This document shows, one piece after another, positions 673-46,787 of a stretch of DNA of 64,000 nucleotides (positions are counted from its first letter, which is position 1; each line of letters begins with the position of its first letter). Made by a program: the position numbers and the translations under genes. The notes under the pieces were generated by a model that saw only the letters and a program-made list of their open reading frames with translations, was not told where the DNA came from and did no database searches. The stretch lies in the NCBI RefSeq assembly GCF_057098645.1, contig NZ_CM169472.1, one strand, 5' to 3'.

Positions 673-1680
673 ATGAAGGCTGCAGTTGTTACGAAGGATC
701 ATCATGTTGACGTTACGGATAAAACACTGCGCTCACTGAAACATGGCGAAGCCCTGCTGAAAATGGAGTGTTGTGGTGTATGTCATACCGATCTTCATGT
801 TAAGAATGGCGATTTTGGTGACAAAACCGGCGTAATTCTGGGCCATGAAGGCATCGGTGTGGTGGCAGAAGTGGGTCCAGGTGCCTCATTAAAACTAGGC
901 GATCGTGCCAGCGTGGCGTGGTTCTACGAAGGATGCGGTCATTGCGAATACTGTAACAGTGGTAACGAAACGCTCTGCCGTTCAGTTAAAAATGCCGGAT
1001 ACAGCGTTGATGGCGGGATGGCGGAAGAGTGCATCGTGGTCGCCGATTACGCGGTAAAAGTGCCAGATGGTCTGGACTCGGCGGCGGCCAGCAGCATTAC
1101 CTGTGCGGGGGTCACCACCTACAAAGCCGTTAAACTGTCAAAAATTCGTCCCGGTCAGTGGATTGCTATCTACGGTCTTGGCGGTCTGGGTAACCTCGCC
1201 CTGCAATACGCGAAGAATGTCTTTAACGCGAAAGTGATCGCCATTGATGTCAATGATGAGCAGTTAAAACTGGCAACCGAAATGGGCGCTGATTTAGCGA
1301 TTAACTCACGCACCGAAGACGCCGCCAAAATTGTACAGGAGAAAACTGGTGGCGCTCACGCTGCGGTGGTAACAGCAGTAGCTAAAGCTGCGTTTAACTC
1401 GGCAGTTGATGCTGTCCGTGCAGGTGGGCGTGTTGTGGCAGTCGGTCTGCCGCCGGAGTCTATGAGCCTGGATATCCCACGTCTTGTGCTGGATGGTATT
1501 GAAGTGGTCGGTTCGCTGGTCGGCACGCGCCAGGATTTAACTGAAGCCTTCCAGTTTGCCGCCGAAGGTAAAGTGGTGCCGAAAGTCGCCCTGCGTCCGT
1601 TAGCGGACATCAACACCATCTTTACCGAGATGGAAGAAGGCAAAATCCGTGGCCGTATGGTGATTGATTTCCGCCGCTAA
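673..1680 (+). CDS. adhP: Zn-dependent alcohol dehydrogenase
   Basis: ATG at 673 preceded by AAAGGAGG; GHEGxG and Zn-binding Cys motifs; ORF-track start at 643 is an upstream alternative start. Confidence 0.9.
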
Positions 1681-1825
1681 GAGGCCTTTGCTGCGACTGC
1701 CATGTTCGGGTTGCAGCATCGCACACTCTCCAACATGAAATGGCTAAATGGATTATTGTTGCGTAGGAAGGAACAATAATGATAGTGTTCCCAGAGAAGG
1801 AACGCTACTGAGAGTAAAGACACTA

Positions 1826-2110
1826 ATGAAAATGGCCAATCATCCCCGCCCGGGGGACATTATTCAGGAATCACTGGACGAACTTAATGTCAGCCTGCGC
1901 GGGTTTGCCAGAGCAATGGAAATTGCTCCCTCAACGGCAAGCCGATTGCTGACCGGAAAAGCAGCTTTGACGCCAGAAATGGCAATTAAACTTTCCGTGG
2001 TGATCGGCAGTTCGCCGCAAATGTGGCTGAATCTGCAAAACGCCTGGAGTCTGGCAGAGGCTGAAAAAACGGTGGATGTGTCGCGATTACGTCGTCTGGT
2101 TGCGCAATAA
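1826..2110 (+). CDS. yddM: XRE-family HTH protein, HigA/VapI-like (94 aa)
   Basis: Internal ATG at 1826 gives a 94-aa product; HTH-like region; synteny. Confidence 0.75.
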
Positions 2111-2140
2111 AAAATGGCGCCTTTTACAGCGCCATTTGAA
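2111..2140. terminator. Hairpin AAATGGCGC-N8-GCGCCATTT, copy 1 (bidirectional terminator type)
   Basis: Perfect inverted repeat flanked by A/T runs directly after yddM stop. Confidence 0.5.
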
Positions 2141-2159
2141 ACTGATGACAAACGCAACA

Positions 2160-2275
2160 TTGCCTGATGCGCTACGCTTATCAGGCCTACACGTTCACTG
2201 CAATCTATTGGATTTGAACGGTTTGTAGGCCGGATAAGGCGTTCACGCCGCATCCGGCATGAACAAAGCCTACGT
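2160..2275. repeat. REP/BIME-type palindromic repeats
   Basis: Two GCCTGATGCG.../GCCGGATAAGGCG...CGCATCCGGC units typical of E. coli REP elements. Confidence 0.6.
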
Positions 2276-2287
2276 TGTCTACAATAT

Positions 2288-2317
2288 GAAAATGGCGCCT
2301 TTTACAGCGCCATTTTC
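2288..2317. terminator. Hairpin AAAATGGCGC-N8-GCGCCATTTT, copy 2 (terminator for fdnI on minus strand)
   Basis: Same hairpin as 2111-2140, 20 bp downstream of fdnI stop. Confidence 0.55.
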
Positions 2318-2337
2318 AGCTTAAAGTTCAAAAGAGA

Positions 2338-2991
2338 TTATATCCCTTCTTCACTCTCTTTTTTCGCTTCTGCCTTCTCGATTTCACGATACCAGCGCGG
2401 ATGGTGTTTCTTCGCCCAGCGACGGCTCACCTTCCCTTCGATCATCCCTTTAATCGATCCTTTCACCCAGAATGCCATATACATATGGATCAGGATGGCG
2501 TGGATCAGGATGATACCCGCAGCCGCGTGGATCAGCAGGCTGTAGCGAACAACCTGCATCGGGAAGTACTGCGCAAAGTACGGACGCCAGATAATCACCC
2601 CGGTCACCAGCAGCACGAAAATCATGCTCATGATCGACCAGAACATCATCTTTTGCCCGGCGTTGTACTTACCGACATCCGCCACTTTATGCTCATTGCC
2701 TTTTAATACTTCGACAATGTTTAACAGCCACGGAATATCTTTCTTATCCGGGATGTTGTGATGCACAAAACGCACAAACATAAACATCAGTGCGACGAAA
2801 ATCGCAATGCCGAAGAATGGGTGCAAAATGCGTCCCATCTGCGGCGTACCGAAGGTTTGCGTCAGCCATTGCAGCGTCGGGAAGAAGAACGAAATCCCGG
2901 ACAGCGCCACCAGGAAGAAGCAAATCACCACGGTCCAGTGACAGGCGCGATCAATAAATTTGGTGCGCACAATCATTTTCGACTTACTCAT
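2338..2991 (-). CDS. fdnI: Formate dehydrogenase-N gamma (cytochrome b556) subunit
   Basis: 217-aa membrane protein from internal ATG (2991); overlaps fdnH stop; operon context. Confidence 0.9.
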
Positions 2992-3868
2992 GATGATCCT
3001 CCTCGTCATCGTCCACTTCCTTATTCGGGCCAATACCGATGTAGTGGAAAATCAACCCGGCAAAAGTGGCAATAAAGCCAGCCGCTGCCAGCGGTTTCAA
3101 CGCGCCTTTCCACAGGCTTACCGAGGTGTCGATCTTCGGATCTTTCGGCAGACTGTGATACAGCTCCGGCTGATCGGCGTGATGCAGCACGTACATAACG
3201 TGCGTACCACCGACCCCTTCCGGGTTGTAGACGCCAGCATGTTCGTAACCACGCGCTTTCAGTTTCGCCACGCGCTGTTCCGCCAGCTCCAGCATCTCCT
3301 TCTTGGTTCCGAAGTGGATAGCCCCGGTCGGACAGGTTTTCACACAAGCCGGTTCCTGGCCGACGCTGACGCGATCGACGCAGAGCGTGCATTTATATAC
3401 CCGGTTATCCTCTTTGTTGAGGCGCGGAATATTAAACGGACACCCGGCAATGCAGTAACCACAGCCGATGCAGTTTTCCGACTGGAAATCGACAATCCCG
3501 TTAGCGTACTGAATGATTGCACCGGCAGACGGGCACGCCTTCAGGCAGCCCGGATCTTCACAGTGCATACAGCCATCTTTACGGATCAGCCACTCCAGCT
3601 TGCCGTTCTGTTCGGTTTCGCTAAAGCGCATCACCGTCCAGGACTTGGCGCTCAGATCGGCGGGGTTATCGTAAACCCCGACGCAGTGCCCCACTTCATC
3701 ACGGATGTCGTTCCACTCCGAACACGCCACCTGACAGGCTTTACAGCCGATACAGGTGGAAACGTCGATAAGTTTTGCGACTTCTGCTTTGTAATCACGC
3801 ACCTGAGAAGGCGGCGTGATGGAGTTAGTTGCGGACCTTTTGATAATGTCCTGCGTTTCCATAGCCAT
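2984..3868 (-). CDS. fdnH: Formate dehydrogenase-N beta (4Fe-4S) subunit
   Basis: 294 aa, multiple CxxCxxCxxxCP ferredoxin motifs. Confidence 0.9.
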
Positions 3869-3880
3869 CTGTTCGCCCCC

Positions 3881-6800
3881 TTACGCCTTCTCGATGTTGA
3901 CTAAGAACGCTTTATATTCCGGCGTTTGCGAGTTTGCATCACCGACATTCGGCGTCAGAGTGTTAGCGATATAACCTTTACGCGCGACACCCTCAAAGCC
4001 CCAGTGGATTGGAATACCCACCGTTTCAACCTGCTGACCATTTACATTCAGCGGTTTCAGACGACGCGTTACCACAGCCACCGCGCGGATAAAGCCACGC
4101 TTGCTTGAGACAGTGACACGATCGCCATTATTAATGCCTTTCGCCGCCGCCAGCGTTTCGCTGATTTCCACAAACTGTTCCGGCTGAGCAATTGCGTTGA
4201 GCAATGCGTGCTTGGTCCAGGTGTGGAAGTGCTCGGTCAGACGATAGGTCGTACCCACATACGGGAACTGCTCTTTTTTACCCATCCGCAGTGCGTCTTG
4301 TTCATACAGACGAACAACCGGGTTAGACACCACGTTCGGATGCAGCGGGTTAGTGCCCAGTGGCGTTTCAATCGGCTCGTAGTGTTCCGGGAACGGACCT
4401 TCCGCCATTTTGTTGATGGCAAACAGGCGTCCCATCCCTTCCGGCTGCATGATAAACGGCCCGGTTGGCGTACCCGGTGCGGCATTGCCGAAGTCAGGAA
4501 TATCGTTACCCGTCCACTTGCTGCCGTTCCACTGGATCAGCATCCGTTTCGGATCCCACGGTTTACCGTTGATATCCGCCGAAGCACGGTTGTACAGCAC
4601 GCGACGGTTGAGCGGCCACGCCCAAGCCCATCCCAGCGTATTCCCCAGACCGGACGGGTCGGAGTTATCGAGGTTAGCCATCTGGTTGCCCTGCTCTGTC
4701 CAGCTACCGGTGTAGATCCAGCAAGAAGATGCGGTTGTACCGTCATCACGCAGATGCGCAAAGCTACTCAGCAACTGACCTTTCTTCGCAATCAGCACGC
4801 CATTAGCATCATAGAGATCTTCCAGCGCATAGCCGTTGTTCTCTTTAGCTACTTCGTCAGATTGCGGTTCGTGCGGCTGCTTGTAGTTCCAGCTCATCTT
4901 CATCAGCGGTTCTACGCCTTTACCACCTTCGGCCTGGTACAGCTCGCGCAGGTGATGGTAGATACCCGCCAGAATTTCACCGTCGTTACGCGCTTCGCCC
5001 GGCGCATCCTGACCTTTCCAGTGCCACTGCAGCCAGCGACCGGAGTTAGCAATAGAACCATCTTCTTCAGCAAAGCAGGTCGAAGGCAGACGGAATACTT
5101 CAGTCTGAATAGACGCCGGATCGACATCGTTCGACTCGCCGTGGTTCTGCCAGAAGGTTGAGGTTTCAGTCACCAGCGGATCGATAACCACCATGTACTT
5201 CAGCTTGCTCAGGCAGCTCACCACTTTGTTTTTGTCCGGGAAGGACGCAACCGGGTTAAAGCCCTGGCAGAAATAACCGGTGACTTTGCCTTCATCCATC
5301 ATGTTGAAATACTTGATGACGTCGTAGGTCTGGTCCCACTTCGGCAGCCAGTCATAGCCCCAGTTGTTCTCTTTCTGCGCGGCATCGCCATAGAAAGATT
5401 TCATCAGGCTAACGAAGAACTTCGGATAGTTGCTCCAGTAGTTCACCTGACCAGCCAGCGTCGCTTTCGGCGTGTTCGCTTCCAGATACGACTGCAAATC
5501 AACCTGTTTTTCTGACGGCAGCGTCAGATAACCTGGCAGGCTGGTAGAGAGCAGACCTAAGTCAGTCAGACCCTGAATGTTGGAGTGACCACGCAATGCA
5601 TTCACGCCGCCACCGGCCATACCCATGTTACCGAGCAGCAACTGGATCATCGCCATAATACGGATGTTCTGCGCACCCACGGTGTGCTGCGTCCAGCCCA
5701 GCGCGTACAGGAAGGTGGTTGTGCGATCCGGTGCGCTGGTGGAGGCCAGCACTTCACACACTTTCAGGAAGTCGGCTTTTGGCGTACCACAGATGTTTTC
5801 AACAACGTCCGGCGTGTAGCGGGAAACGTGCGCTTTCAGCAGGTTCCACACACAGCGCGGATGAGTCAGTGTTTCATCGCGTTTCGCATAGCCGTTTTCA
5901 TCGAACTGATAGTTCCAGGACGATTTATCGTATTGCCGTTTTTCAGCGTCGTAGCCGCTGAACAGACCGTCTTCGAAAGCAAAATCATCACGCACCAGCA
6001 GGCTGGCGTTGGTGTAATGCTTAACGTATTCGGCGTTGATTTTGTCGTTTTCGATCAGGTAGCGCAAAACGCCAGACAGGAACGTAATGTCCGTACCGGA
6101 ACGAATAGGTGCGTAAATATCCGCCACAGAAGCGGTACGCGTAAAACGGGGATCGACAACGATCAAGGTTGCATCGTTGTTGTTTTTCGCTTCCATCGCC
6201 CAGCGGAAACCGACGGGATGCGCTTCAGCAGCGTTACCGCCCATTACCATTACGACGTTAGCGTTTTTGATATCCACCCAGTGGTTGGTCATCGCACCGC
6301 GACCAAATGTTGGAGCAAGACTTGCTACCGTTGGTCCGTGTCAGACGCGCGCCTGGTTGTCTACCGCCAGCATCCCGAGGGAGCGGGCAAATTTCTGGGT
6401 CAGCATCCCGGTTTCGTTGCTGGCACCGGAAGCACACAGCATACCGGTAGAAAGCCAACGGTTTACCGTTACGCCCTGCTCGTTCTTTTCAATAAAGTTA
6501 GCGTCACGGTCAGCTTTCATCAGCTTCGCAATACGGGAGAATGCTTCTTCCCAGCTAATGCGCTGCCATTTGTCAGAACCTAGCGCACGATATTCCGGGT
6601 AGCGCAGACGGTTTTCGCTGTTGACGTAATCCAGCAAACCGGCCCCTTTCGGGCACAGCGCACCACGGCTTACCGGATGATCCGGGTCACCTTCAATGTG
6701 ATAAATCGCTTCTCTGGCGTTTTTCGCGCCATCACCCAGGCTATACATCAATAGCCCGCAACCTACGGAACAGTATGTGCAGGTGTTACGGATCTCTTTA

Positions 6801-6928
6801 GCGCGTAATAATTTGTAGTTTCGCGCCTGAGCCAGTGCTTGCTTCGGGGCAAAGCCCAATGCCGCTACTGTTGTTCCAGCCATACCGCCCGCGCAGATTT
6901 TAAAAAATTGTCTGCGACTGACGTCCAT
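3881..6928 (-). CDS. fdnG: Formate dehydrogenase-N alpha subunit, selenocysteine-containing (in-frame UGA at 6341-6343), Tat signal
   Basis: Two ORF-track pieces (6341-6928 and 3881-6292) in the same frame separated only by TGA; N-terminal SRRQFFK twin-arginine motif; total 1015 codons. Confidence 0.9.
6290..6343 (-). other. UGA-Sec codon plus downstream SECIS stem-loop in fdnG mRNA
   Basis: mRNA reads GUC UGA CAC GGA CCA ACG GUA GCA AGU CUU GCU CCA ACA UUU GGU CG, which can fold as a stem-loop immediately 3' of UGA. Confidence 0.7.
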
Positions 6929-9567: not shown

Positions 9568-10827
9568 ATGACCAATATTAATACAGCTTGTGTAAAAAAT
9601 AATGCCAGTTATCAATTTAATAACGCATTACCTAACAAAGAAACCATCTCCAGCAATTTTTGTGAACGACTAGAACAATGGGGTAATAAGTCGCTTAATA
9701 ATGGTGAAGAAAGAGCAATTGCCGTGGAGCGAATTAAAGAAGCTTACAATTCGAACATGGCATCTCTTGATTTGTCATATCTTGATTTGAGTGAGTTGCC
9801 GCCTATCCCTTCGACAGTTAATACGTTAAATCTGGAAAACAATTGTCTAACTTGCCTTGACTTTGCTGACAATGCTAGTCTCGTCAATATCAACCTCAGC
9901 TTTAATAAAATTAAAACGATAACCTTTCCAAATGAATCAAAACTGGAAAATATTTATATTGATCATAACGATCTGGAAAGTTTAGATTTTAAAAACCAAA
10001 ATTCATTGATTAATCTGGAAGCACAAAATAACAACCTGACAAAAATTAATATTTCTGAAAGTTATAAACTGAAATTTCTTAATCTTGATTATAACAAACT
10101 ATCATCACTGGATCTCTCCCGGCAAGAGTCTCTGATTGAGTTAAGTGCCCATCACAATATGATCACTGACCTTATATTACACAATCATCCCAGGATGAAA
10201 ACAATCACTTTAAACGACAACCATATTGCACATTTAAACACCAAAACCACTACAAAACTTGAATATTTAAACTTAAGCAATAACAATTTATTGCCAACCA
10301 ATGACATTGATCAACTAATATCATCAAAACATCTTTGGCATGTATTAGTTAACGGCATCGACAATGATTCACTTGCACAAATGCAGTACTGGACTGCAGT
10401 AAGAAATATAATTGATGACACTAATGAAGTGACCATTGATTTATCTTATAATCTGGCAATCACAAATATCGATACCAGTGATGAACATCTTGTAGAAGTA
10501 AGCGATAATTCAGAAGGTAATTATATAAAAGACAATGACTCAATGTCTATTCGTTATAGATCAAAATATTATTCCAGAGATTCCGCCTTAATAGAAGAAG
10601 AAACAATATTTTCTGACGCAGAACTAAAAGCTATTCTGCCTATGCGTCGCATGTACGGGGTTGGTGACTATAAGTCAAATTCCTCTTCTCTATCCTCACT
10701 CTCGGGGCTCAAGGACCCAACGGGCACACCCGTCTGTTATTATATTCATAATGAGAGTAAACCTTCCTTAGGTTATGGTCCAACATGCAATAATTGGTTA
10801 AGCCAATCCTTTACAACAGAGTTATAA
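9568..10827 (+). CDS. yddK: Leucine-rich repeat protein with IpaH/SspH-like N-terminal LRR region, no NEL domain
   Basis: ~22-residue LxxLxLxxNxL repeats; N-terminal W..GEER..AV.RIKE...LDLS.L.LSELP resembles IpaH-family LRR N-termini; AT-rich. Confidence 0.75.
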   Translation: MTNINTACVKNNASYQFNNALPNKETISSNFCERLEQWGNKSLNNGEERAIAVERIKEAYNSNMASLDLSYLDLSELPPIPSTVNTLNLENNCLTCLDFADNASLVNINLSFNKIKTITFPNESKLENIYIDHNDLESLDFKNQNSLINLEAQNNNLTKINISESYKLKFLNLDYNKLSSLDLSRQESLIELSAHHNMITDLILHNHPRMKTITLNDNHIAHLNTKTTTKLEYLNLSNNNLLPTNDIDQLISSKHLWHVLVNGIDNDSLAQMQYWTAVRNIIDDTNEVTIDLSYNLAITNIDTSDEHLVEVSDNSEGNYIKDNDSMSIRYRSKYYSRDSALIEEETIFSDAELKAILPMRRMYGVGDYKSNSSSLSSLSGLKDPTGTPVCYYIHNESKPSLGYGPTCNNWLSQSFTTEL

Positions 10828-23574: not shown

Positions 23575-24102
23575 TTACGAAAGCCTTCTCCCCGCAAGGA
23601 CTGACGCCAGGTAGTTTCTGTCCATGGCTGCTTTTCGCATCTTACGTCTTAACCCAGCCTTGAATACCTTATCATTCGTCAAAATATTAATAGCAATGTG
23701 CCGTATCCCTGAAAATAATTCTGCTGCATTTCCTCTTCTTATTTTGCAGTCGTCTTCATTCATTACCACGTCCAGACGCCAGTGCAGCTTATTCTCCACG
23801 TGCCAGTGGTTTCGGATTGCTGTGGCGAACTTCTCTGCGGTTAAATCAGCAGAACTGATATAATATCTGACCGTCATTTCTGGCTCTTTCTTTTGTTCTG
23901 CTATTATGGACCGAAAGGAGACTGCCACGCATAATTTCTTCAGCCCTTTCCATTCAAACGTGAAATCAATAAGTTCATCAGGAACATCGCAAACAATATG
24001 AAGACGGATTTCTTCTCTGCCGTGACTAAAATGCGAATTATTTAGTACAAAAAAAGCGGCGCACCTTGTTCTTTCCCAGATTCCTAATATGGCAACTTTA
24101 AG
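23575..24102 (-). pseudogene. ISAs1-family (H-repeat-associated) transposase, 3' fragment only
   Basis: Open frame of 175 codons with no start codon; C-terminal region with [22 protein letters not shown] typical of H-repeat ORFs; N-terminal half replaced by AT-rich DNA. Confidence 0.7.
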
Positions 24103-24266
24103 TTATCGCCGTCTATACTTATAGAAATTTCATCAGGGGTGACATAAATAGAATTTTTTTCATCCTCAATTGCCCATAACTGATTAATAAAAAAGTGTTT
24201 TTTATCATCTAATAACAAATCATCACATGTAGTAAAATTATTAATATCAAAAAAAATCATCAGCAC
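24084..24266 (-). CDS. Hypothetical small acidic protein (58-60 aa)
   Basis: ORF only; overlaps the end of the upstream ORF; no clear RBS. Confidence 0.3.
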
Positions 24267-24678
24267 AATTAATTTTTAAATTTAAAAAATAAAGAAAAAT
24301 ATTATTGATTGATTTGAGTGTAAACCACTTGTCATTAACAAATTTATAGCTAGATGATTTTATAAAATAATAATTATCTCCTGGTATAAAGGCATACATA
24401 TCATTTAAGGTTATACTCAACAAAAAACTACGACCTGGTTTAATAGTATTCCAGCGTTCAGGATTCGTATTAATTTCAAAAGGACATGAACCACCTAAGT
24501 AGTCCAACGTGATATTCCCAGAGTTGATCCTGAATGGTTTTTTGCATATCGCATCATATTCATCTCCTTTTCCATCTTTTACTTTCATAGGTAGATAATA
24601 TTTAGAAAAAAAATACGTGGTAGAGCTATTGTTAGTAAAGGTTATGTTAGCAAAAATCCTGTTATTTTTTTTACTCAT
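24247..24678 (-). CDS. Hypothetical protein; frame is open upstream to 24822 without a start (possible disrupted gene)
   Basis: 143-aa ORF from ATG 24678; same frame open for a further 48 codons upstream; an overlapping 38-codon ORF with ATG lies in another frame. Confidence 0.4.
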   Translation of the reverse strand: MSKKNNRIFANITFTNNSSTTYFFSKYYLPMKVKDGKGDEYDAICKKPFRINSGNITLDYLGGSCPFEINTNPERWNTIKPGRSFLLSITLNDMYAFIPGDNYYFIKSSSYKFVNDKWFTLKSINNIFLYFLNLKINCADDFF

Positions 24679-24956
24679 AGCTAATTGAGCATTGACATCC
24701 GCTATATAATTTATATGATTACATTTTTTCTTACACTCATCATAATTTTCGATAGGATAAATTAATGGTCTTCCTTTGATATCTCTCTCAAGCCCAAACC
24801 CGTATTTTTTATTAAAACCATTTCATCCGCAGTCGATTGAAAGGAATAGAAAAATATAATATTTACGATTGTCATTATTATGATTTTTTTATAGCTTGCA
24901 GCATTAATATATTTCTCGACTTATTAGTTAATGGAGAAGTGTTTTTTCTAATTCCG

Positions 24957-25184
24957 CTATTTTTTCTTAACTGAATTGCTTAATATTTCATCATTAATCG
25001 AGTCTATCTCACTTTCAATTAATCTTATTTCAAAATATCTTTCTATGTTATATGCATTCTCAAATATTTGATCTTTTTGTTTAGAGATCAGTTTAGTTGC
25101 AATACGGATATGTTCGTCATATGAAACTTCATCCTCTTTGCACGTTGAATATTTATCAGTAGTTGTATAATCCTGTGACCACAT
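24957..25184 (-). CDS. Hypothetical acidic protein (75 aa)
   Basis: ATG preceded by AAAAGGTGGT; net acidic; AT-rich. Confidence 0.5.
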   Translation of the reverse strand: MWSQDYTTTDKYSTCKEDEVSYDEHIRIATKLISKQKDQIFENAYNIERYFEIRLIESEIDSINDEILSNSVKKK

Positions 25185-25266
25185 ACCACCTTTTTATTAT
25201 CCCCATAATACCACTGAATATGAGACATTTCATGACATAAAGTAGTAACATGAGAATCCTTTCCCG

Positions 25267-25716
25267 TTACTGGATTTTTTTGCCATCTCTATACTCAAAT
25301 TTTGCGCCTATGTTAATTATATAGGACATATCCTTACTTGGGCTGACGAATGCTGCAAATTCATTACAACCTGTATAATTTATAAAACTGCTCATTGTTA
25401 AATCATTAGCTATAATCATTAATCTTCTCACGCCATCCATCATAAGAAATCTAGCATTCATGCGCCTACCTGTATTATATCCATATTTTCTTATATTAAC
25501 TTCCTTATTTCCTTTAACACCAAAGATCTTACTGAAATAATATTCCTCCTGTGCTCCCCATCTCAAAAGATCATCTGCTCTTTTTATCAAAACCAACTTT
25601 TGTGCCTTACGAGCCTTATCAATCATTATTTTAAAATGATCAGTTATTTTTTGCTCTTTCACACATTCTTCTGGCTCTGGCTTTGGTTGTCCAGAAGTTT
25701 GATTATTATCGTCCAT
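25267..25716 (-). CDS. Hypothetical basic protein (149 aa from internal ATG)
   Basis: ATG 25716 preceded by GGAAGGA; net basic; no family recognised. Confidence 0.5.
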   Translation of the reverse strand: MDDNNQTSGQPKPEPEECVKEQKITDHFKIMIDKARKAQKLVLIKRADDLLRWGAQEEYYFSKIFGVKGNKEVNIRKYGYNTGRRMNARFLMMDGVRRLMIIANDLTMSSFINYTGCNEFAAFVSPSKDMSYIINIGAKFEYRDGKKIQ

Positions 25717-25903
25717 AGTGTCCTTCCATTGAGAGAAAATCATCATTCGCAAATAGCAACTAAAAAGCAGCATTACTTGACCTTTCCCTGCATAACAATA
25801 TTTATAAAATAATACGTTTTATGATCTCACCTTGGGCTCCCAACAAGATAATTTCAGTTTTAAAGACTTTCACGAAAAAAATATAGAAATACCTCACCAC
25901 CCT

Positions 25904-26194
25904 TCACTTACCAATTAATCTCACAGGAAATCCAACTTCCTTACCACAAATACAATCCCAAGTAACACCTCCCAAAATTTTTGATACTTTAGGCTGCAAT
26001 GGCATTATTGACATTATAAATTTATCAAGTTCTTCGCTATATTTAATTCCCTTTATATTTCTTATTATTGATATTCTAGCAGTAAAGATAGCCGTCTCTC
26101 CATCTACACTAAAAGTGTAATTACAATTTTTTGTAATCTCATCAAATTCAACCGATAACAAATCAATATTATGGTTTGTAAACACTATGCCCAT
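25904..26194 (-). CDS. Hypothetical protein (96 aa), candidate immunity partner of the upstream papain-like domain
   Basis: ATG 26194 overlaps the stop of the upstream ORF by 26 nt. Confidence 0.45.
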   Translation of the reverse strand: MGIVFTNHNIDLLSVEFDEITKNCNYTFSVDGETAIFTARISIIRNIKGIKYSEELDKFIMSIMPLQPKVSKILGGVTWDCICGKEVGFPVRLIGK

Positions 26195-26672
26195 TCCATA
26201 CCTCCTTAAATTCCTGTTCAGTCATCAGATATCGACTCCCTTGATATGGATCATATATTATCACATTCCCAGCATCATCAACACCCTTAACAAGTACCCA
26301 ATGCCCTACTTTACTTCCAGAATCCCATATCATTGCTCCCCATGAACCAGTATTACTGAGGGCATATAAACTAGATTCGCTCACTGCATTCCCTTCCCAG
26401 CCGACATCAAATTTATTAAGCTTGTTTGCCAGCGACGTCATAGATGTTAATTCTGTTCCAATTACATTTTGCGTGACAAAAATATACCTATCCCTAAGCA
26501 ACATTTCCCCACAGGCCGCTCCACAGCCTGTTAAAGTCAATTGCTTTATTACATTTGAATCTAAAACCTCATCAAATACTGTCCAATTGCCACCAGCACC
26601 ACCTTCTAAAACTACCGGCTCTACAAATACTTTCCCAGAGATATTTTCTTCTGGTATTTTTGCGGGTATCCA
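26169..26672 (-). pseudogene. Orphan papain-like (C39-like) cysteine peptidase-fold domain without an ATG/GTG start
   Basis: Frame open 26672-26169; only TTG at 26540; motifs TGCGAACGEML (Cys) and GHWVLVKGVDD...IIYDP (His, Asp) in papain-fold order. Confidence 0.5.
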
Positions 26673-28144
26673 TTACTGGTGGCGTCTTCAAACCGCAGCT
26701 CGTTAAATCCGCTTCCTTTATAGGTTTTTGACCGGATGGTCATCTGCGTCTTCGTTCCCGGCAGGTCGCCCGGCGAACGGTTGTCCTCATGGTAGGTCCG
26801 CCCCATGATTATCGGCTGGTCCGGGTCGCCGTTCAGAAAATCAACAATCACCTCCTGGCCCACCCGCGGTATCGCCAGGTTACCGAACCCCGGCCCCGCC
26901 CACGCCTGCGACACCCGCACCCAGCATGAACTCGCCTCCGTCATCCCGTGATAACGGTCCCAGTGGAACTTCACCCGTACCCGGCCATGCTCGTCGCAGA
27001 AAATCTCTTCTCCCGCAGGCCCGGTGACAATGGCGCTCTGTGGCCCGTCCACCTTCGGTTTGTTTTGCAGCCGTGGACGCCACGTCCGGTCCGCCGGTAT
27101 CACCTCTAACTGATTTCCCAGCGTGGTTCCCTTTCCCTGGCTGCCGTGCAGCGCCTGCGGCTGGCTTCCTGACAGTATGCTCTGTACCACCTGCCATTCA
27201 CGGTTCAGCATCTTCTGCGGATGCCTCGTCAGCGTAAACCGCGTTCCCGGCCACAGCCTCGGCGAATTACTCTGCCCTGTGGCCTTTTCCGCATCACTGC
27301 GCAGGCTGTCCATCTGGTACAGCGTGAAATCCTTGCCGTGCTGCTCGTCCTTGAACCTTCCCGGATAATCAAATATCTCATACTGCGCCAGCTGTCCGTT
27401 CAGGTTCTCACCCTGCTGCTCATACATCCCCGGCCAGTCCGGCACCTTAAACGTGTAATCCTGGCTCTGTACCGACGACGGGCGGACATACGCCTCATAA
27501 CGGAACATACTGACACACTCTGTCTCCGCTCCTGCCGATGTGTCCGGGTTAAACGGAAACTCCCCCGCCTGTGACAGCCCCGCCACATCGTCGCACAGCG
27601 TCAGCTTCTGCTCCGGACTGTCCGCCGCAAACCGCTCAAAGAAGAAAATCCCCTCCTCCGCCCACAGCCGCGCCAGAAACGCCAGGTCGCTCTCACCGTA
27701 CTGGACACAGAACTCCCGCGCCGGATGGTCTTCATAAAACAGCGGAGTCCACTCCGTGACGCCGTTCTCGTTCAGTAACGTGGCCGATACCGTCCGGATA
27801 TCCTGCTGCTGGAAGATACGGAAGTTCTGCCGCAGCCCGCACCGCCATAACGGCGGCTCAATACGCAGGTGATAACGCATCTGCCAGCCATTGTTCTCCT
27901 GCATGCCAAAGCCCGCCACCACGCCGGTAACATAACGCAGCGGGATGACGCCCTGCCAGATGGTCAGCGTCGCCTTCTTCTCCAGCAGCATCCCCGCCGT
28001 CTGCATAAAAGAGTCGCTGGCAACATCCACACTCATCACAAACGGATATGACTGGTTCTGGATTAACCTGAAATTCGCCACTGCAAAGGTGTCCGGCTCC
28101 TGGCCGTCAATCTCCAGCGTAAAGCGCAGACCTTTTAAGGACAT
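26621..28144 (-). CDS. VgrG (T6SS spike) N-terminal gp27/gp5-like portion, truncated at ~490 residues
   Basis: Conserved VgrG blocks incl. SSCWVRVSQAWAGPGFGNLAIPRVGQEVIVDFLNGDPDQPIIMGRTY; C-terminal 20 residues unrelated; GC-rich then abrupt AT-rich junction near 26670. Confidence 0.85.
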   Translation of the reverse strand: MSLKGLRFTLEIDGQEPDTFAVANFRLIQNQSYPFVMSVDVASDSFMQTAGMLLEKKATLTIWQGVIPLRYVTGVVAGFGMQENNGWQMRYHLRIEPPLWRCGLRQNFRIFQQQDIRTVSATLLNENGVTEWTPLFYEDHPAREFCVQYGESDLAFLARLWAEEGIFFFERFAADSPEQKLTLCDDVAGLSQAGEFPFNPDTSAGAETECVSMFRYEAYVRPSSVQSQDYTFKVPDWPGMYEQQGENLNGQLAQYEIFDYPGRFKDEQHGKDFTLYQMDSLRSDAEKATGQSNSPRLWPGTRFTLTRHPQKMLNREWQVVQSILSGSQPQALHGSQGKGTTLGNQLEVIPADRTWRPRLQNKPKVDGPQSAIVTGPAGEEIFCDEHGRVRVKFHWDRYHGMTEASSCWVRVSQAWAGPGFGNLAIPRVGQEVIVDFLNGDPDQPIIMGRTYHEDNRSPGDLPGTKTQMTIRSKTYKGSGFNELRFEDATSNGYPQKYQKKISLGKYL

Positions 28145-28162
28145 AAATACCTCTCAGACATA

Positions 28163-28447
28163 TCAGCCTACATTTACCGTACCGCCACCAATGACCACAC
28201 CACCACAGTCGATGGCATCACCGGTTCTGGCGGCGGGCAGGCCGTCAATAAAGACGGTTGACGAGCCTCTGGCGATTTTACGGGGATGAGGGGGATGCTT
28301 CGGTTTAGCATGCGGCGTCAGCGGATCTCCCTGGCGGGCTGCGGGGAGACCATCGATAAAAACGGTGGATGACCCGGCGGTGATGACGGTCTCGTAATAA
28401 CCGTCGTGCTGGGTGCCTTTGTCGGTGAGTTTGGCTGCTAAAGGCAT
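28163..28447 (-). CDS. PAAR-domain protein (94 aa)
   Basis: Two STVFIDGLPAAR(Q/T)GD PAAR motifs; AGGAGG RBS; 18 bp upstream of vgrG. Confidence 0.8.
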   Translation of the reverse strand: MPLAAKLTDKGTQHDGYYETVITAGSSTVFIDGLPAARQGDPLTPHAKPKHPPHPRKIARGSSTVFIDGLPAARTGDAIDCGGVVIGGGTVNVG

Positions 28448-28986
28448 AATTCCTCCTGTTCAGAATTTCTACAGCAGCAGGTTTCAAAAATCCGGAGAAA
28501 TATTCAACGAAATATTAATCACTTCACCGGATATTCTGATACGTACCTTCACTGGTCTATTTAAGTAATACAAATTGTTGGCGTGAATTAAGTTCCATTT
28601 TGTTCTCCTTAATTATGTAAGGAGTATTTGATCATGTATAAGCAATAAAAACAGCTTCAGGAAATAAGGAATATCGCAATTTTTAAACATAAAATGCGAA
28701 TCGTTCAATACAAAAAAGCAGCGTTGCGTAATCTTTCCCTGATTAAATACGCTACCGCCCTACCCTGATGACATGATCTGCACTGCACTATCATATCGAC
28801 ATGTTTCTCTACATGCGAAAAGATGTTTTATTTTCGGATTGTATTAAATTGATATTTCATATAAAAAACGAAATTACATCAATCATATAAATAGTTGTAC
28901 CAACTTTAATTACTATTCATAGCAAACAAATGAATATCCAGTTAACTACGCCAGTGATTCATTAACATTAACCTCCGGCATTATTG

Positions 28987-38288: not shown

Positions 38289-38462
38289 TTAAAACAGTGA
38301 AAACAACAGCGCCACCGGGAAACTCATCGGCCATGTTGCCCCCACCAGAAAGGCGCTTAAGAAACGGATGCGTTTCTTATCGTGAGAAAGAAACCAGGTG
38401 ATAAGAAATGCGATTGCTGCCATAACCGCATAAAAAACAAGCATGTGTTGATAGAGAGACAT
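38289..38462 (-). CDS. ortT: Small membrane toxin OrtT (GhoT-like), 57 aa
   Basis: Internal ATG at 38462; two hydrophobic helices. Confidence 0.75.
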   Translation of the reverse strand: MSLYQHMLVFYAVMAAIAFLITWFLSHDKKRIRFLSAFLVGATWPMSFPVALLFSLF

Positions 38463-38656
38463 GTACGGGCGTCCAGCCAGATGAATAAAACGCGCGCAAA
38501 TATGCGTCATTTTTTGACGTGCATCAAGTTTTTTAACCGGTTTGAGAAAAAAACATCAAACAGCAACTTGCCCTTATCCATCTTCAGAATGAGTATTATT
38601 GCGGATTTTCTTAACCCGTACTATACACATAGGGGCAATGATAAAAGGTGGCAAAA

Positions 38657-45927: not shown

Positions 45928-46344
<417 letters not shown>

Positions 46345-46389
46345 AATTTCGACTGTCTCTCGCATGTCATTAACCTTTTTAATTGGCGA

Positions 46390-46566
46390 TTAACTCAAAC
46401 CGAGTTGTTTCAGGATTGCTTTACGCAATGGTTCTTTAATCTCATCGCAGGGGTGACGCGGCATGACACTGCGCCTCCCATGAAACCTGAGTTTCAAATG
46501 GTTGCTGCCATTCGCTACATCGACGCCCTGAGATTCGAGCCAACGTCTGAACTCGCTTTGTTTCAC
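46390..46566 (-). CDS. hicA: HicA mRNA interferase toxin (58 aa, GTG start)
   Basis: Translates to VKQSEFRRWLESQGVDVANGSNHLKLRFHG...; below the ORF-track size cutoff. Confidence 0.85.
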   Translation of the reverse strand: MKQSEFRRWLESQGVDVANGSNHLKLRFHGRRSVMPRHPCDEIKEPLRKAILKQLGLS

Positions 46567-46787
46567 ATCGCCTCCCTGCCGCTGAGTATATCAACAAAGT
46601 AAACATTAGTGTTTACCTCCGTGTGTAATTTGCTCGAAAATAGCACTAAATCGCCGCAACGGCAGAATGCAATGCAAAATCAGGAAGGAAGATTCCAGAA
46701 TTTCTTTGCGCTAATTTGCAAAACTGAATAATAACCTCAAGAAACGATCGGCATCATAGCGGCAAAAGGTAAGAAAAAGGTGGCAGG

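Follow-up and report, generated by a model that had tools for sequence, protein, structure and literature searches.

In the chromosome of E. coli O145:H28, an intact open reading frame of 96 codons lies within the remains of an orphan vgrG gene and is identified with high confidence as cpi1, which encodes the immunity protein against the T6SS effector Cpe1 and is preserved here next to a truncated cpe1. The identity of Cpi1 and its biochemical mechanism are essentially settled and the gene is already known, so that the O145:H28 configuration is a fresh instance of a known phenomenon with a known gene. The window, that is, the whole stretch of 64,000 nucleotides analysed here, is a piece of this chromosome and is 99.945% identical across 64 kb to E. 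coli O145 strain RM9872. The features that bear on the argument are as follows.

28163..28447, minus strand: intact PAAR gene, 94 aa, which heads the island (Pfam PAAR_motif, E=8.8e-21; RefSeq)
26621..28144, minus strand: truncated resident vgrG (tssI) (Pfam Phage_GPD and Phage_base_V; RefSeq pseudogene; comparison with two intact loci)
26169..26670, minus strand: cpe1 remnant (cpe1'), I314-P479 and the stop codon, with M427I (alignment to E10 cpe1; 9L5U chain A; StbD-CT, 8SSK/8SSM)
26200..26207, minus strand: Shine-Dalgarno sequence AAGGAGGT of cpi1, inside the cpe1 coding frame (direct reading of the sequence)
25904..26194, minus strand: cpi1, intact immunity gene of 96 aa, WP_000513317.1 (open reading frame; 96/96 to PDB 9L5U chain C)
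25762..25903, minus strand: 3' part of the cassette, flanking DNA that came along from the cpe1-cpi1 locus and extends to the right illegitimate junction (BLAST against E10; junction sequences)
24928..25716, minus strand: pseudogene of an M35-family metallopeptidase, the original cargo of the island, which has lost single bases at three places by comparison with the intact allele (comparison with intact islands)
24084..24904, minus strand: pseudogene of a 274-aa signal-peptide protein, with two deletions and one insertion (comparison with intact islands)
23575..24036, minus strand: ISAs1-family transposase fragment that closes the island (Pfam DDE_Tnp_1; RefSeq)

The open reading frame, which starts with ATG and occupies 25904-26194 on the minus strand with the stop codon included, was evident from both the listing of open reading frames and the sequence itself, in accord with the preliminary description of this DNA. 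Its ATG (26194) begins 23 nt ahead of the TAA stop (26171-26169) of the papain-like frame located directly upstream on the same strand; the two frames thus share 26 nt when the stop codon is counted, which is the overlap that had been reported. The upstream frame was rightly called papain-like, given that it matches Pfam Peptidase_C39 (E=5.4e-7, 29.9 bits, with a cut-off of 22). Within this frame, 6 nt ahead of the cpi1 start, lies the strong, consensus Shine-Dalgarno sequence AAGGAGGT (26207-26200), and the minus-strand sequence around the start reads TTTAAGGAGGTATGGAATGGGCATAGTGTTTACAAACCATAA.

Scans of the 96-aa protein against Pfam and NCBIfam (release 20) matched zero models, which agrees with the earlier remark that it has no recognisable motifs; after these empty scans, the family was assigned from a search of the PDB sequences and from the RefSeq annotation. 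The protein is identical in 96 of 96 residues to chain C, 'Cpi1', of PDB 9L5U (E=3.6e-62), and all four interface residues, I47, M61, M64 and K72, are present; for the frame of the cpe1 remnant, 122 of 123 positions agree with chain A of 9L5U, M427I being the sole difference. The gene is also identical to the annotated cpi1 of E. coli strain E10. Its RefSeq product, WP_000513317.1, is a 'hypothetical protein' in most assemblies and a 'cysteine protease immunity protein Cpi1' in the recently annotated ones, where it adjoins a 'cysteine protease effector protein Cpe1'. The 96-aa reading frame (GC content 31%) is not a chance product: an ATG-started frame of at least 96 aa appeared in 53 of 2000 mononucleotide shuffles of the surrounding 909-bp cassette, and the identity to a crystallised protein is more decisive than this count. 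The window encodes the type sequence of the Cpi1 family. A homologue search recovered only 11 clusters, all of them close, E. coli-type sequences of 76-100% identity, and so offered no view across genera; the sole distant relative seen, the CdiI-type immunity protein StbI (8SSM chain C), came from the PDB search.

The biology of the pair has been worked out elsewhere. As shown by Song et al. (PLoS Biol 2025, PMC12136450), Cpi1 confers cognate immunity to the T6SS effector Cpe1, which combines a PAAR-like N-terminus with a papain-like (C39) cysteine protease as the C-terminal toxin domain, with C362 as the catalytic residue (PMC12136450); under its former name, Tsap, the effector had been described earlier in ExPEC RS218 (PMC10434152). 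Cpi1 rescues the toxicity of the toxin domain (Cpe1tox), co-purifies with it and shields recipients in T6SS competition (PMC12136450). The co-crystal of Cpe1 and Cpi1 at 1.87 A revealed an interface of 1,050 A2, with Cpi1 sitting outside the active site, on a hydrophobic concave exosite (L387, M390, A408, M426, W428, V434), and a quadruple mutant of Cpi1 in I47, M61, M64 and K72 lost both binding and immunity (PMC12136450). This exosite overlaps the docking site of GyrB and ParE, and for this reason Cpi1 out-competes both substrates: Cpe1 binds Cpi1 with a Kd of 8.58 nM vs 343 nM for the ParE ATPase, and ParE is displaced by Cpi1 in a concentration-dependent manner (PMC12136450). The rescue, pull-down, affinity and structural experiments were all done with a sequence identical to that of the Cpi1 considered here (PMC12136450), so that the co-expression rescue and the pull-down that the preliminary description had proposed as checks were already in print for the identical protein.

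The main proposal of that description, a cognate immunity protein of the papain-like domain, is thus supported, an inference drawn from the sequence only that proved correct and provides a useful calibration point. It needs one qualification, in that the toxin gene of the window is not a working one. The remnant cpe1' retains 166 of 479 codons, and the homology to the intact cpe1 of E10 begins at 26670 (codon 314). No intact cpe1 is present in the window and no second copy was found in the genome, that is, cpe1 is a single-copy gene. The locus in the window lacks the PAAR-like/DUF4150 and entry domains as well as the gene for the DUF2169 chaperone and, therefore, a deliverable Cpe1 cannot be made. 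Thus, the window does not contain an active T6SS effector-immunity pair, in which a full-length, deliverable effector is encoded beside the immunity gene; rather, since cpe1 is a delivery-less 3' remnant, it contains a dead toxin and an intact orphan immunity gene, with cpi1 complete and the only cpe1 truncated. The overlapping arrangement of the two frames is a legacy of the intact cpe1-cpi1 operon.

The toxin gene, truncated as it is, still encodes the linker, a putative GG|A auto-processing site and the complete C39 peptidase domain. The site maps to G336-G337|A338 in the alignment with StbD-CT, the crystallised C39 domain of which begins at the equivalent alanine, and the codons of the catalytic triad, C362 (26525-26523), H436 and D453, are all present in the DNA. 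According to a preprint from the Hayes laboratory, Cpe1 shares the auto-processing site and the cytoplasm-entry domain of StbD-CT (bioRxiv 10.64898/2026.05.07.723447). One might therefore imagine an addiction pair, in which cpe1' is translated from the TTG codon of L357 or from the ATG codon of M369 into an active or partly active protease, and the loss of Cpi1 is lethal. We consider such an arrangement very unlikely, even though the whole C39 core with its triad survives in the DNA with the single substitution M427I, and the C-terminal portion of Cpe1 alone is toxic in the cytoplasm (PMC10434152; PMC12136450). In the cpe1 frame, there is a TAA codon immediately upstream of the join, and the first in-frame start is the TTG at 26540 (L357), five codons ahead of C362. 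Initiation at this codon keeps C362 and loses residues 338-356, so that the fragment is deprived of A338-Q356, the 19 N-terminal residues of the processed peptidase domain, which are present in the crystallised constructs; initiation at M369 loses C362 itself. All in-frame starts, L357 and M369 alike, lie after Q356, which we take to be the oxyanion-hole residue on account of its analogy to Gln11 in ComA, where this glutamine precedes the catalytic Cys17 by six residues. By reading of the sequence, a Shine-Dalgarno sequence is not recognisable at either start. The RefSeq coding sequence of the remnant (26169-26504, minus strand; ATG at 26504) begins at M369, past the catalytic C362. Its product, WP_000926703.1, is annotated as a 'cysteine peptidase family C39 domain-containing protein' of 111 aa; because the start lies downstream of C362, this coding sequence specifies a fragment of the toxin rather than a peptidase.

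Comparison with the E10 locus defines the segment in which the two genes reside as a cassette of 909 bp (26670-25762) that consists of cpe1 codons 314-479, cpi1 and 142 bp of 3' flank. In BLAST alignments, the window is resident island from 30791 to 26671 (97% identical to an intact island locus), cassette from 26670 to 25762, and resident island again from 25761 onward. Positions 26670-25759 align with positions 5871-6783 of the E10 locus at 99.56% identity, about 4 differences in 913 aligned positions, and the match to E10 continues for ~142-146 bp past the cpi1 stop. Given this near-identity to the donor type, the cassette is young and, for the same reason, the divergence is too small for selection on cpi1 to be detectable. 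The cassette replaces 876 bp of the resident orphan vgrG, that is, the 3' third of this gene. The native vgrG sequence stops at 26671 and is followed by 16 wrong-frame cpe1 codons up to the TAG at 26623-26621, so that the C-terminal ~310 codons of the intact 801-aa alleles are missing. At the left junction, vgrG sequence ending in AGTAATG meets cpe1 sequence beginning with GATACCC, and cpe1 lies in the -1 frame relative to vgrG. Both junctions of the cassette are illegitimate joins, and cpe1' is out of frame with vgrG.

Two other histories of the locus were considered and rejected. A simple internal deletion within the vgrG-DUF2169-cpe1-cpi1 operon is at odds with the vgrG part, which the resident vgrG of the yncG site fits better (97%, to 26671) than the vgrG of the T6SS cluster (94%, to 26679); moreover, the cassette replaces part of vgrG, and the M35 cargo of the island itself continues downstream. 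An in-frame fusion of VgrG and Cpe1 that was subsequently broken by an indel is not compatible with the junction either, in which the parental sequences abut with no bases gained or missing, and it follows that the join was out of frame from the outset.

The same junction brings up a cryptic fusion as a further possibility. A -1 shift by ribosomes that translate the truncated vgrG, somewhere along the 16-codon stretch from the junction to the stop (for instance, on CAA-AAA-T at ~26661-26655), would join VgrG(1-491) to the linker of Cpe1, followed by its auto-processing site and protease; if such a fusion were produced, Cpi1 would be needed for self-protection. It is true that the cpe1 frame is exactly -1 with respect to that of vgrG and that a run of five A lies just 3' of the junction; furthermore, the retained part of cpe1 begins upstream of the processing site, and papain-like (PLCP) domains fused to VgrG are known in other species (PMC12136450). 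However, the A-run is native cpe1 sequence and not an evolved slippery heptamer of the X XXY YYZ form, the truncated VgrG has lost the last third of its sequence and would be unable to build a spike capped by PAAR, and the join resembles a simple out-of-frame illegitimate event. The probability of this fusion appears to us to be negligibly small.

The island that received the cassette occupies the site between ansP-yncG and pptA-yddH-nhoA. At this site, ~508 genomes carry a PAAR gene, an intact 801-aa vgrG, a gene for an M35-family metallopeptidase, a gene for a signal-peptide protein of 261-274 aa and an ISAs1 remnant. In the window, the PAAR gene and cpi1 are the only intact genes of the island. 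The GC content, ~0.60 in vgrG, falls to 0.31-0.41 across the cassette and to 0.28-0.36 over the M35 region, such low values being typical of variable cargo. The intact M35 allele carries the zinc motif HEMSH, and comparison of the region with the intact allele of KK05-19 shows 3+3 single-base frameshifts in the two pseudogenes, five of these being deletions of a single A. Behind a full-length VgrG, the M35 gene and the 274-aa gene are intact as a pair in ~508 complete E. coli genomes and look like an uncharacterised VgrG-linked effector with its partner; the gene for the 274-aa signal-peptide protein possibly is the partner or the immunity gene of the M35 protein. The window differs from RM9872 by a 1-bp indel within the M35 pseudogene, with the annotated coordinates one base off between 24957 and 25267, a difference that fits ongoing homopolymer decay or assembly noise.

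The ends of the island are also marked by related sequences. Upstream of the PAAR gene, a segment of ~155 bp (28588-28741, minus strand) shares 86% identity with the DNA downstream of cpi1 in E10 (6752-6906) and terminates in the start of an ISAs1 transposase open reading frame, ATGGAACTTAA. A shorter copy is found at the opposite end of the island, at 24027-24077 (minus strand), just before the ISAs1 fragment, so that directly oriented remnants of the ISAs1 left end flank the PAAR-vgrG island. In the donor-type locus, the cassette ends on its right side ~30 bp inside the same ISAs1-type element, and these remnants may have served as recombination substrates. Elsewhere in the window, a gene for a 418-aa leucine-rich-repeat domain protein (10890-12146, plus strand) and a partial hypothetical gene (~10159-10446, plus strand) sit between the RefSeq-annotated porin OmpC and narU as an accessory insertion in a core region, and the flanking core toxin and antitoxin genes yddM (HigA-like), ortT, hicAB and hokB (~1822-2106, 38290-38463, 45929-46567, ~62027-62176) are ordinary E. 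coli features unrelated to cpi1.

With the vgrG gene truncated and the M35 gene and its neighbour carrying six frameshifts between them, the intact 291-bp cpi1 could be a young relic. The cassette, on this account, came by an accidental illegitimate recombination that destroyed vgrG, and cpi1 is unexpressed or confers no benefit, remaining intact because it is recent and short. This account is a serious possibility that we nevertheless place on the improbable side. It is consistent with the decay of every gene of the island except for the PAAR gene, cpe1 included, with the youth of the cassette and with the narrow distribution described below, and also with the promoter predictions: in the region 25700-28700, there are 7 promoter-like sites compared to 3.6 +/- 1.9 in shuffled sequences, which is no enrichment over the background, and the one at 28640-28612 has nothing but its match to the consensus in its favour, so that these predictions say little about the expression of cpi1. 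Against it, cpi1 is preceded by its own consensus Shine-Dalgarno sequence and is read in the same direction as the intact PAAR gene, 3' of which it lies; in the same region, 4 terminator-like sites were detected, with 2.4 +/- 1.6 expected, and none that is convincing lies between the PAAR gene and cpi1. Judging from this layout, the PAAR gene is the probable source of read-through transcription towards cpi1, and the layout favours a working orphan gene. Two further points that run counter to the relic account, namely, an independent loss of the toxin and the abundance of strains armed with Cpe1, come from the survey of genomes.

We surveyed 5426 complete E. coli genomes with blastn, using a cpi1 query of 265 nt, and detected cpi1 in 332 of them. 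A query that joined the C-terminal region of cpe1 with cpi1 recovered the same 332 genomes, with one copy in each, all chromosomal and at least 98.5% identical, so that cpi1 and the toxin region of cpe1 occur together, side by side, in 332 of the 332 genomes that have either; the co-occurrence suggested as a check in the preliminary description is borne out. Full-length cpe1 (coverage of at least 80%) is present in ~301 of the 5426 genomes. The truncated arrangement of the window is confined to about 31-34 near-identical genomes of the O145:H28 type (99.9% identity), which match only positions 939-1440 of the cpe1 query (35% of the gene). With cpe1 as the query, 335 genomes were matched, compared to 332 for cpi1; three genomes contain part of cpe1 without the toxin tail and cpi1 and may combine the same PAAR-like carrier with another C-terminal toxin and immunity module, as in the swapping of polymorphic toxins. 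In E10, the operon consists of hcp, vgrG, the DUF2169 chaperone gene, cpe1 (479 aa) and cpi1, followed by ISAs1, and is located beside tssB. In two ExPEC-type strains, GN05476 (NZ_CP147578.1, locus 2309-4995) and AR_0017 (NZ_CP024886.1, locus 1451-4137), an IS3 element is inserted in cpe1 near the 5' end, and a second break separates the DUF4150 part of cpe1 from the C39 part, with cpi1 intact (WP_000513317.1). This is an independent loss of the toxin in which the immunity gene was kept and, as a second case of an intact cpi1 beside an inactivated cpe1, it favours a working orphan in O145:H28 as well. The cpe1-CT/cpi1 module is found also in E. coli A0 34/86 (NZ_CP120567.1), the source of which is given as 'probiotic product', under the annotation 'PAAR-like domain-containing protein', a name that points to a full-length effector. 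Records derived from Nissle aligned with only half of the query from the M35 region, and none were among the listed minority of the cpe1/cpi1 matches.

Taken together, these observations lead us to lean towards cpi1 being a protective orphan, a reading of the sequence to which we would give somewhat better than even chances. The 909-bp cassette of cpe1'(314-479) and cpi1 entered the resident orphan vgrG out of frame by illegitimate recombination, and cpi1, with its own ribosome-binding site and co-directional downstream of the intact PAAR gene, could be transcribed. If so, it would act as an orphan immunity gene that shields the STEC lineage from Cpe1-armed E. coli, mostly ExPEC and commensal strains, the target of protection being a foreign Cpe1 and not a toxin of the own genome. 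A more specific version, that O145:H28 STEC captured the toxin tail together with the immunity gene from a T6SS locus of the ExPEC/commensal type and that cpi1 has been kept under selection as an acquired defence, is offered tentatively, with chances that fall slightly short of even.

Were such an acquired defence real, O145:H28 would be immune to the GyrB- and ParE-cleaving Cpe1 of ~6% of the complete E. coli genomes, which include one or more strains obtained from probiotic products (A0 34/86). A Shiga-toxin-producing lineage carries, in this case, an immunity gene without the weapon, and an enteric pathogen would disarm the weapon of a competitor by means of an orphan immunity gene at the price of one spike gene of its own. 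Expression of cpi1 would alter competition in the gut with Cpe1-armed commensal, probiotic or ExPEC strains.

Among the known systems, the immediate counterpart is Cpi1 of E. coli ATCC 11775 (9L5U chain C; PMC12136450), with which the gene described here shares the entire 96/96 sequence, the product WP_000513317.1, the overlap with the 3' end of cpe1 and the Shine-Dalgarno sequence. Only the genomic context differs. In strains of the ATCC 11775 type, the hcp-vgrG-DUF2169-cpe1-cpi1 operon adjoins the T6SS core genes, and cpi1 comes after a gene that encodes the complete Cpe1 of 479 aa, whereas in the window it comes after the 166-codon cpe1 remnant, which lies out of frame inside another vgrG, an orphan located at the ansP-yncG/yddH-nhoA site. 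The word 'orphan' was not found in the Cpe1 paper (PMC12136450), where the O145:H28 configuration apparently is not described.

Orphan T6SS immunity genes as such are an established concept, in E. coli too (PMC6730261). Those of Vibrio cholerae (Kirchberger et al. 2017) and E. coli (PMC6730261) resemble the present case in that an intact gene persists without a working cognate effector and is highly similar to the gene of an effector-immunity pair in another strain. The classical orphans, however, form arrays downstream of an active pair after replacement of the effector, whereas in O145:H28 the 3' end of the toxin gene and cpi1 are placed in the body of vgrG, which is thereby destroyed, and the protection is putative.

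Outside E. coli, the closest relative of Cpi1 is StbI (CdiI) of Citrobacter rodentium DBS100 (8SSM chain C), a protein of 95 aa that is homologous over residues 15-94 (phmmer, E=6e-9) and strongly diverged, as expected for immunity proteins with cognate specificity. Its partner, the C39 toxin StbD-CT, shares homology with Cpe1tox (E values of about 1e-39 to 3e-55) and cleaves the same substrates, GyrB and ParE, and StbI, like Cpi1, docks on an exosite without covering the active site (bioRxiv 10.64898/2026.05.07.723447). Unlike Cpe1, StbD-CT is borne by a CdiA-like carrier of contact-dependent inhibition and not by the T6SS. The analogy drawn in the StbD preprint extends further, to the immunity proteins of the colicin DNases, Im7 and Im9, which, like Cpi1, are high-affinity exosite inhibitors bound adjacent to the active site, but are unrelated to Cpi1 in sequence and fold and inhibit nucleases rather than a protease.
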